A DNA stretch of 64,000 nt from Euglena gracilis (GCA_039621445.1 CP154954.1:31892012-31956011), one strand, 5' to 3'. Shown: positions 9,049-12,000, counted from the stretch's first letter. Made by a program: numbers and translations. The notes: generated from the letters alone by a model not told the origin.

Positions 9049-12000
9049 TTATGTCGGGAGAGATTTTTTACAGATCTGAGGCCTGAATGAGGAGACTGCG
9101 TGATTGCCGAAGGCGTCCCAAGAGGGGACGGAGGAATTACCGCGAAGAAGTGCGACGAGTGCCTGCTCGTGTGCCGTGATGCCCCGGTCCACGGACAATC
9201 GTCTGTGTGGCACAGGCGCAGCAAGGGACAAAAAGAAAACGCCGCCGGGGTCGGGGATGGGGTTTGACACTGGCAAGGACAACCTCGAGTGCAGGCCGGG
9301 GCGGCGGTCCCCGGGATCCCCTGCTGCGCGGCGGCCGGGTCCGTCCCGGGCACCGTCAGGAACGGGCGGTACGCCCCCCAGTCCGCCGCGAGGTGCGCCG
9401 CCACGGCCCGCAGCGCCGCGACCTCGGGGCCACCGCCGCCCCGTCCCCCCGCCGTCCCCGGCCGGCCCCACAGCCCCACGGGTCTGGGGTCCGGTGGAGC
9501 CCCGAGGCAGTCACTGCGCCGTGGGTGGGCGGTGGTTCCTTGGCAGCCCGACAGCCCCCCCCCCCAAATGCAATTCTGGCGTTGGCCTGGGGACGGCTTG
9601 ACTGTGCCTGGGCCCTTCCCCCGGAGGCCATGAGTTGTGTGCGTCTGAATGGCCACCGGGGCATCCGGCAGGGGTGTGCGGCAGAGGGAGGGCAAAGGGC
9701 ACAGCTGAAAAATGCCCACCCAACAGGATTTGGGCTTTGGTTGGGCTTTCTTTTTTGGGAACCTGCCGGGTCCAGCTCCCAGACAGCCGACCCCCCCCCC
9801 CCCCCCCCCCCCCCCCCCCCCCGGGACCCCCCCCACCCTCTGGGGGGGTCCAGCACCTTTTTCCCAACCAACCTTTTCCCAACCAGCAAATTTTTCGAGC
9901 CAGCCCGCGGGATCCCCTGGGGGGGTCCTTAAAAAACCCAAAATTTGGAGGTGAAAACCCCAAAACCGCCCCAAAAAGACATTTTGTGCCTTTTTTTTTG
10001 ACCCCCATTTCCCAAAATTTTCGGCAAATTGGGCCGAAATTTTTTTTTAGGTCCCTCCCGGCTTTGCCGGGCTGGCCCGAACTTTATTTCAGTGTACCCC
10101 CTGCAGCCCGGCTGGGAGGTGCTGGCTGGGAAAAAGGTGCTGGCTGGCTGGATCCGGAGTCCCTCCCCGGCTTGCCCCTGAATCCATATCCCCTGGTTGG
10201 CCATCTCTACGCCTCGCGGCCACTGTGATGTCGCCGGGCTACCACCCACAGGGAGGGGCCCGGGGCGGCGGTGGGCGGGGCTGAACTCCGGCGGGGCGGG
10301 CTGCAGGGAGGCGGGCGGGGCCGGCTGGGCGGCCGTCAGGTGCGTCAGCAGGCGGCGCAGGTCGGCGCAGGCCCCGGCGGGAGGAGGCAAGCCCCCCCCC
10401 CCCCCGACGACGGTGGGCGTTCGGAGCCCACGCGCCGCCCCCCCCCCCCACCCCGGCTCGCCCAGCCCCCCCTTGGCCTGGGCGGGGCTGTCGAAGTCCG
10501 TGGGCAGCTCTGTGTCGGGGTCCAGCACGGGCCGCACCGCGAAGCAGTCCCACAGGCCCAGCGCCAAACCCCCATGGCCGGCCGGTGGCCCCGCCCCGGC
10601 CCCGCCAGGAATGCCATAGGGGCTTGCCCAGCGCGGCCAGCGCCCGGTGCCAGCCGATGGCCGGCAGGGCCCCCGCCCCGGCGGAGAGGTACTCGTCGCT
10701 GAGGAACGCCTGGCCCGCCAGGAGGTCGGGGAACTCGCGCCGCAGGGCGGCGAGGCCGCTGCTGGGGCCTGCCGGGGGGGAGACGGGCGGGCCGCGGCGG
10801 TCACGCGTGACCGTTCGTGTGGTCATGACGGTTGCGCGTTCAACGCCTACCAATGCCCGCAACCACAATATATATATATATATATATATGTGTGTGTGTG
10901 TGTGTGTGTGTATATAATACGCAAACATTTAAAACAATCACCACAATTAATTGCAAAAATCAACAAATTATACAGACAGCTTGCTTGTCGCCAATATGAG
11001 AGGCAAGCGTGTCTCTTGAAAAAATATCAAAATAATGCCATTGACACAAGTATTCCGTAAAACGTAGATGTGGCTGTGTCCGTGTGTCAAGCTGAAATGC
11101 ACACGAGGGGGTGCATGTTCATAGGGAGCTGCATTGCACAGAAGGTTGCACAACCCGCAGCATACAGCGTCCCGGCTGGCTCAGGCCCGTCGGGAAGTAC
11201 ACCACGTCCTCCGCCGGCCGCCGCCACCCGCGGTGGATGCCGTCCTCCACCCACAGCCCCCGACAGGGACCGGTGGCTCGGACTTGCACCACCCTCCTGG
11301 TTTGGACCAACGTGGTAGGGCTCCCCCCCCCTCCGGATTGGACCGGTGCGGTAAGACTCCCCCCCCCCCCCCCCCCCCCCCCCCGGGCCCACCATCACCG
11401 GCCTCAGCCCCCCAACCATCCCTGGGCACACCGATTGGCGAATGCGCTGCTTACGGGCGGTGTCGTCGGCCCAAGTGACCACGTGGGCCACGAGGAACCT
11501 GAGAGGAATCCGGTCCTGGGGGAACCCAACACATGATGGACCTCAACTTTGCTCAGGCCAGCCCAAAAGGCATGGGGTGCGGTGGACTGAAAGCACCTCG
11601 TCCCCTGGTGGTTGTGCTGGTTTTGGAGTTGACAACCCCCCACCCTGAACAAAACGGCGGCCAAAACCTTGTCACGGGCCAGTCGTATCGGGTGTTTCAG
11701 GGGCTGCTGTGGGGGGACTCTGGAGACCAAACACAGCCTCGTCATGCGGCGAGTGTCCGGAACAATGCCTTTGATCTGGCCCCGCCACGCCCTTGCTTTT
11801 GGCATGGCATAGACCGCTGCCAACGTGTGTAGTCCCCAAATGCATCCTGTCCCCTCTCCCCCGACCCGCTGGCGGAGGCACACACCGCAGGGCGGAGACG
11901 CCGGCGGGGCCGAGGGGCTGCTGGGGCGGCAGAGGCTTCTCCTTCGGGAGCAACCCTGGCGGGGCGAGACAGCTGTCGATGATGGCCTCGGGGGTGGCCC

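Follow-up and report, generated by a model that had tools for sequence, protein, structure and literature searches.

The 64,000-nt stretch of Euglena gracilis DNA analysed here (GCA_039621445.1 CP154954.1:31892012-31956011; hereafter the window, with positions counted from its first letter) carries a protein-coding gene on the minus strand. In this gene, an upstream exon at 10630-10768 (contig pieces 10626-10767) and a downstream exon at 10484-10559 (contig piece 10483-10555), both also delimited by their GC phase, are separated by 70 nt at 10560-10629, within which lies a 62-bp hairpin element enclosed by two identical octamers. The original prediction, made from the sequence alone, described these 70 nt as a minimal intron at which the reading frame switches. 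We conclude, with a probability of roughly 0.88, that they form a nonconventional (non-GT-AG, hairpin-dependent) intron of the euglenid type.

By sequence inspection, the octamer CCCAGCGC occupies 10557-10564 and recurs identically at 10627-10634, as had been described. The 62 bp between them (10565-10626, minus strand) begin with CAAAC and end with GCTTG, and because the element's final G repeats too, the true direct repeat is 9 nt (GCCCAGCGC; 10556-10564 and 10626-10634) rather than 8 nt long. The terminal arms comprise 14 nt each (10565-10578 and 10613-10626) and match at 12 of 14 positions on DNA. In the sense RNA, transcribed from the minus strand, the fold uses CAAGCCCCTATGGC (10613-10626) as the 5ʹ arm and GCCATGGGGGTTTG (10565-10578) as the 3ʹ arm, and both arm mismatches become G.U pairs, giving an unbroken stem. 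The terminal stem that had been proposed is present, with a length of 14 bp in the sense RNA instead of the 13 bp claimed. The folding energy of the sense RNA was −42.5 kcal/mol (z −3.53, with 2 of 200 shuffles equally good) and that of the antisense RNA was −33.7 kcal/mol (z −2.17, with 7 of 200 shuffles equally good); the better folding of the sense RNA was counted in favour of an intron.

To what extent such a structure stands out depends on the stringency of the scan. With a loose scan (an exact 8-mer repeat, at least 8 of 10 terminal matches and an element of 30-3500 bp), the hits in the window were not above chance, the shuffled sequences giving a mean of 1.8 hits per window over 30 shuffles. 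When the element was limited to 40-300 bp and at least 12 of 14 terminal matches were required, there were no hits in 300 shuffles versus 20 in the real window, of which 19 lay in internally repetitive stretches and the remaining one was the 62-bp element. Arrays of units of about 43 bp at 32611-34806 and 40875-43075, with a short palindromic core (CCTCCTCGAA...TTCGAGGAGG) between repeated 8-mers, give rise to many false hits of the inverted-repeat-plus-duplication kind.

The codon phase of the two exons was read from the position of G and C. In exon 10630-10768, all 46 positions whose coordinate is divisible by 3 were G or C, while in exon 10484-10559 this held for 25 of 26 positions with a remainder of 2; the 70 nt between them showed no such phase (19/24, 19/23, and 16/23). 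Removal of exactly 70 nt on the minus strand accounts for this change from phase 0 to phase 2, and the predicted frame switch is confirmed: the phase of G+C at third codon positions jumps at the element by 70 modulo 3. The same bookkeeping also holds across the neighbouring introns of 397, 120, and 851 nt, and the five spliced exon pieces (527 nt) have GC fractions of 0.79, 0.59, and 0.98 at the three codon positions. Stop codons were considered as evidence for the frame and rejected: two of the three spliced frames and one intron-retained frame are open, the absence of stops being uninformative because the DNA is GC-rich. The product of the gene was not recognizable. A Pfam search of six long frames yielded only noise below the threshold (E 0.3), a search with the 47-aa exon found no homologue at E ≤ 0.01 (among proteins of 84-2000 residues), Rfam gave 0 matches in the window, and a composition screen of the long frames showed nothing recognizable.

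Four runs were compared over 8400-12450, namely X1 (DNA), X15 and X16 (RNA-type contigs from two studies), and X21 (RNA-seq reads). Record 4 of X1 covers 10451-10856 unbroken, the element included, with three substitutions in the element (10609, 10610, and 10619) and no indel. In record 14 of X16, 10483-10555 is directly joined to 10626-10755, so that 70 nt are skipped (10555 to 10626). In record 10 of X15 (7906 nt), the pieces 10276-10362 and 10626-10767 are separated by exactly 73 record letters, which is the length of the exon piece 10483-10555. At the intron positions 10609, 10610, and 10619, the depth was 0 in X15, X16, and X21, versus 70.1 in X1. The 70 nt are present in DNA and absent from the RNA-type contigs, and once they are removed the codon phase is restored. 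The predicted intron status is thus borne out by RNA-type contigs of two studies that lack exactly these 70 nt and by an independent DNA contig that has them. Neither an assembly indel nor retention of the 70 nt in mRNA, the outcome named beforehand as speaking against an intron, was seen. The GC-rich, repeat-rich DNA with homopolymer runs nearby could favour an assembly error in the window that created the 70 nt or the frame shift, but the independent DNA run assembled the same 70 nt with three substitutions and no indel, and the probability of such an artefact is practically negligible.

The same joins would be expected if the transcripts stemmed from an allele or strain in which the 62-bp insertion had never occurred and nothing were spliced, since removal of the element with one duplication copy leaves the same sequence as an empty target site. 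DNA and RNA were sequenced from different samples, and the window and the runs differ by 1-5% (1556 of 1992 X1 contigs fall in the 95-99% band). However, the RNA contigs share the exon variants 10326 T>A and 10511 T>C with the X1 haplotype that holds the element, which argues against transcripts from an insertion-free allele. The X1 contig is also unbroken over the site, at a depth of 70.1 compared with 67-70 in single-copy neighbours. Moreover, there are three other non-GT-AG introns in the transcript, two of which obey the 3/5-nt geometry considered below without an intact 8-nt duplication, and removal at the RNA level is needed for them anyway. We therefore give a presence/absence polymorphism very little chance.

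Owing to the 9-nt repeat, the intron has ten equivalent cut positions, from 10556-10625 through 10565-10634, which all yield identical mRNA, and none of the ten gives GT-AG, GC-AG, or AT-AC borders on either strand. Published nonconventional introns of euglenids follow the rule 5ʹ-N3CDG-/-CHʹGN5-6|R (PMC12501133), positions +4 to +6 pair with −8 to −6 (PMC4770533), and a purine occupies +1 in 51 of 55 of these introns and opens the next exon in every case (PMC4770533). Only the cut 10560-10629 on the minus strand pairs all of +4 to +11 with −6 to −13, at 8 of 8 positions (seven Watson-Crick pairs and one G.U pair). Contigs and pairing together give an intron of the form GGG-CAA...TTG-GCGCT, with a 3-nt spacer GGG before CAA and a 5-nt spacer GCGCT after TTG. 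Both test positions are purines, G at 10629 (intron +1) and G at 10559 (next exon start). The junction GCCGCGCT|GGGCCTG put forward in the original prediction is the sole cut that fits the euglenid geometry. As the repeat scan and the cut-position table show, both octamers, which carry no strand of their own, are divided by it. In the sense-upstream octamer (10627-10634; CCCAGCGC on the plus strand and GCGCTGGG in sense), the first five sense nucleotides are kept in the mRNA and the last three are intron +1 to +3, and in the sense-downstream octamer (10557-10564), the first five are the last five of the intron and the last three open the next exon.

Following the published rule, the 14-nt ends would pair in the pre-mRNA, and this pairing would determine both cuts, the 5ʹ one lying 3 nt ahead of the first pair and the 3ʹ one 5 nt beyond the last, whereupon the exons would be joined with the reading frame restored. 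Published euglenid introns of this kind are released as circles and removed after the conventional introns; by analogy, the present intron would probably be released as a circle after the conventional introns have been removed. In the X1 allele, the substitution 10619 G>A on the plus strand (C to U in sense) turns a C-G pair into U.G and the terminal stem is kept; the fold of the 70-nt intron has −41.5 kcal/mol in this allele versus −46.4 kcal/mol in the window. The term "minimal" does not hold for this intron, as nonconventional introns of less than 50 bp and spliceable synthetic ones of 50 bp are already in print.

Could the spliceosome itself remove the 70 nt through degenerate splice sites, as in Fritillaria and Amoebophrya, with no separate pathway involved? 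The machinery for nonconventional introns of euglenids is unknown, and elsewhere the spliceosome removes noncanonical introns that bear terminal inverted repeats (TIRs) and target site duplications (PMC11282704). However, a C-rich tract and CAG mark the 3ʹ end of the gene's GT-AG intron, whereas the 70-nt intron has no polypyrimidine tract or AG and conforms to a 3/5-nt hairpin geometry that is peculiar to the nonconventional introns of euglenids. We give a degenerate spliceosomal intron little chance.

Several points weigh against the assignment to euglenid nonconventional introns. The RNA status of X15 and X16 is only a guess, though their exon-only coverage parallels that of the true RNA run X21. 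X21 has a depth of about 1-2 here, with no split read over this junction among the rows listed, and the evidence for the junction is a table of contig pieces, the junction row not being among the joints listed. Further, CAA/TTG lies outside the genetically defined CDG/CHʹG signature (usually CAG/CTG), and hemistasiid diplonemids also have hairpin-ended noncanonical introns (PMC12621601), while the Pfam, protein and Rfam searches gave no match that would identify the host as a euglenid. Under the assignment that we prefer, the 70-nt intron is a further example of a well-described class and involves no new mechanism; in a Euglena-type genome, such an intron is nothing unusual.

The transcript of the host gene contains one GT-AG intron and three other nonconventional introns beside the 70-nt one, all on the minus strand and all delimited by contigs and the cut table. 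The conventional GT-AG intron (10769-11165, shift 1 in the cut table) has a C-rich tract and CAG at its 3ʹ end. The nonconventional intron of 348 nt (11996-12343) has the consensus form GGA-CAG...CTG-GGGCC|A, and that of 851 nt (9426-10276) has the form GCC-CAC...GTG-GCCCC|G with a perfect terminal stem of 14 bp. In the nonconventional intron of 120 nt (10364-10483), a CAGGCC/GGCCTG stem is flanked by spacers of 3+4 or 2+5 nt, which total 7 and not 8; in a published assay, shortening of the 3ʹ spacer by 1 nt reduced splicing. An ab initio search for nonconventional introns, based on terminal stems and flanks in phase by third-position GC, was flat over the spacer pairs (about 1500-1650 or 27-35 hits per cell); the flank filter does not pin the borders.

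Some further observations concern these introns and the nearby transcripts. The 851-nt intron contains an extremely high-copy repeat at 10032-10167, with a summed k-mer depth in X1 of about 157,000 versus about 70 for single-copy sequence. Record 13 of X16 (10123-10354, depth 3.4) runs from inside this intron into the next exon and is possibly unspliced precursor RNA or DNA carry-over. In a neighbouring transcript, contigs of X15 and X16 and a single X21 read jump over the 578-nt interval 8515-9092. The ends of this interval are GG..GG and not slidable, GGCCT at +1 could pair with AGGCC at −14 to −10, and it fits neither the GT-AG rule nor the 3/5-nt hairpin rule when checked by hand on both strands. 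The 31 nt at 11717-11747 have a very high RNA depth (344-372 X21 reads), and the reads continue into unrelated sequence at both edges. This segment may be either a micro-exon of a highly expressed gene with its other exons outside the compared stretch or a segment shared with a paralogue.

The CAA/UUG ends of the 70-nt intron, at +4 to +6 and −8 to −6, have A-U instead of G-C as the third pair, and pairing is kept. In E. agilis, 61.2% of nonconventional introns fit the CDG/CHʹG signature (PMC12501133); CAG/CTG was found in 33 of 55 introns, and Milanowski 2016 reported that complementarity and not sequence is conserved (PMC4770533). As the motif is frequent but not universal, a non-CAG example is expected and unsurprising. 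The original prediction inferred from the CAA/TTG ends that pairing and spacing matter more than the CAG sequence. The 70-nt intron and the 851-nt CAC/GTG intron of the same gene both retain the 3/5-nt spacing and the pairing without CAG/CTG and are consistent with this idea, as natural examples and not as mutational tests. Against it weigh the results of a knock-in assay, in which single substitutions in CAG or CTG abolished splicing (PMC12501133). The main text of that paper contains no CAA, TTG or "compensat", and a two-sided change of the third pair is apparently unreported there. The 70-nt intron provides a spliced natural A-U third pair (CAA/UUG) outside the code defined by knock-in, and together with its CAC/GUG neighbour it makes a ready test case for whether pairing or base identity counts at the third pair.

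As to the origin of the intron, the 62-bp element has inverted terminal repeats (12/14 on DNA) and an exact 8-bp flanking duplication; these repeats and the intact 8-nt duplication, which the cuts divide 3+5, suggest that the intron goes back to an inserted small TIR element. As read from the sequence, the 3- and 5-nt spacers together equal the 8-bp duplication, which fits a MITE-like origin (MITE, miniature inverted-repeat transposable element) and is no proof of it. The element predates the split of the window and X1 haplotypes, because both carry the element. For comparison, the window contains a TIR element of 2020 bp (28552-30571, with CAAGCACCTCTG termini and no strand assigned) that is flanked by a perfect 8-bp duplication, GTGACGGG (28544-30579 with the duplication), of the same length as that of the 62-bp element. 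Two further members of this family are a second copy at 38508-39850, which shows no clear duplication, and a solo end at 5845-5854. The CAAGCACCTCTG-ended family is non-autonomous, with subterminal CAGCATCGCC repeats and internal tandem repeats. If transcribed from the plus strand, the 2020-bp copy would fit GGG-CAA...TTG-GTGAC|G, the geometry of the 70-nt intron.

The original prediction linked the two elements by their ends and proposed that more than one TIR family feeds intron gain. Only one arm of the 62-bp element resembles the terminus of the 2020-bp element, at 11 of 13 nt, a match of which about 1.4 are expected by chance in the window by our own arithmetic; with up to three mismatches, matches to the terminus were below chance overall in the window. 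What is notable in the 11/13 match is that both sequences are located at element termini, and the link between the CAA/TTG intron and the CAAGC-ended 2-kb element is no more than suggestive. Searches of the 64-kb window turned up no further copy of the 62-bp element, blastn-short giving only a 21-nt GC-rich match, and its k-mer depth in X1 was 70.1, which is single-copy (equal to one contig). Searches with the two-arm pattern of the element and with the terminus of the 2-kb element gave 0 metagenome contig matches, in collections that may hold no such DNA. Because the window gave no second copy, the depth is single-copy, and the likeness is confined to one arm at 11/13 nt, the proposal that several TIR families feed intron gain is not supported.

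These same observations leave room for a real intron that arose by double-strand-break repair or local duplication with no transposition, as Milanowski 2016 proposed for an intron with 8-nt repeats (PMC4770533). The lack of another copy in the window, the single-copy k-mer depth in X1, and the absence of metagenome contig matches to the two-arm pattern all agree with such an origin and speak against a MITE family. A 14-bp inverted repeat flush with an exact 8-bp duplication is, in contrast, the classic footprint of a TIR insertion, and a genuine TIR element, whose duplication is equally long and whose terminus matches at 11/13 nt, is present in the window, along with a second copy and a solo end. 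We regard break repair as a serious alternative, though less probable than not.

More tentatively, the two spacers may be the halves of the 8-bp duplication, and nonconventional splicing may be the RNA-level "precise excision" of one superfamily of 8-bp-duplicating, CA(G/A)-ended TIR elements; we consider this doubtful. If it is true, the 70-nt intron would be a young MITE of the CAAGC-ended family that survives as 1.3-2-kb elements in the window. Since the cuts split the duplication 3+5, one and the same duplication position supplies both intron +1 and the first base of the next exon, and the purines at these two sites would be duplication position 6 seen twice. The MITE hypothesis for euglenid nonconventional introns and the 8-nt repeat have each already been published, and the literature consulted still asks whether these introns originate from transposons; we did not find the 3+5=8 equivalence or a candidate parent family stated in the parts of the literature searched for it. 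The intact copies of the duplication, with all 8 nt in each, show directly that the cut sites split it 3+5, and with the TIR element 18 kb away, which has an equally long duplication and a similar terminus, the intron forms a concrete pair for testing a transposon origin.

Compared with known systems, the 62-bp element is like MITEs and other small TIR transposons in its size, its non-coding sequence, its imperfect 14-bp inverted repeat, and its exact 8-bp duplication, and unlike them in that no second copy was detected in the window, no transposase was identified, and mobility was not seen. Its 8-bp duplication and CA-purine termini may resemble those of hAT elements. The introner elements of Micromonas, Aureococcus, and dinoflagellates and the MITE-derived introns of Amoebophrya and Fritillaria likewise have TIRs and duplications, one copy of which is removed with the element. 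Those introns are described as spliceosomal, supplying or co-opting GT/AG-like sites or using a modified spliceosome, and they occur as multi-copy families, unlike the single 62-bp element; in the 70-nt intron, neither the element nor the duplication supplies GT/GC and AG.

The closest likeness is to the nonconventional introns of Euglena gracilis and E. agilis, as described in PMC12501133, PMC4770533, PMC3935182, and PMC11170887. These have no GT/GC-AG borders, a stem from +4/−6, spacers of 3 and 5 nt, purines at +1 and at the start of the next exon, "slidable" borders due to direct repeats, and GT-AG introns in the same gene, and 8-nt direct repeats have been reported for a recently gained euglenid gapC intron (PMC4770533). 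The 70-nt intron differs from the usual euglenid form in its CAA/TTG ends with an A-U third pair. The noncanonical introns of hemistasiid diplonemids are also GC-rich, with paired ends and no conserved dinucleotides (PMC12621601). About 97% of the introns in these organisms are noncanonical, with no mention of a 3/5-nt CAG/CTG geometry in the portions of that source considered (PMC12621601), whereas here a GT-AG intron lies in the same gene. The mixture of intron types in one gene, together with the C-rich tract and CAG at the conventional 3ʹ site, fits Euglena better than hemistasiids.

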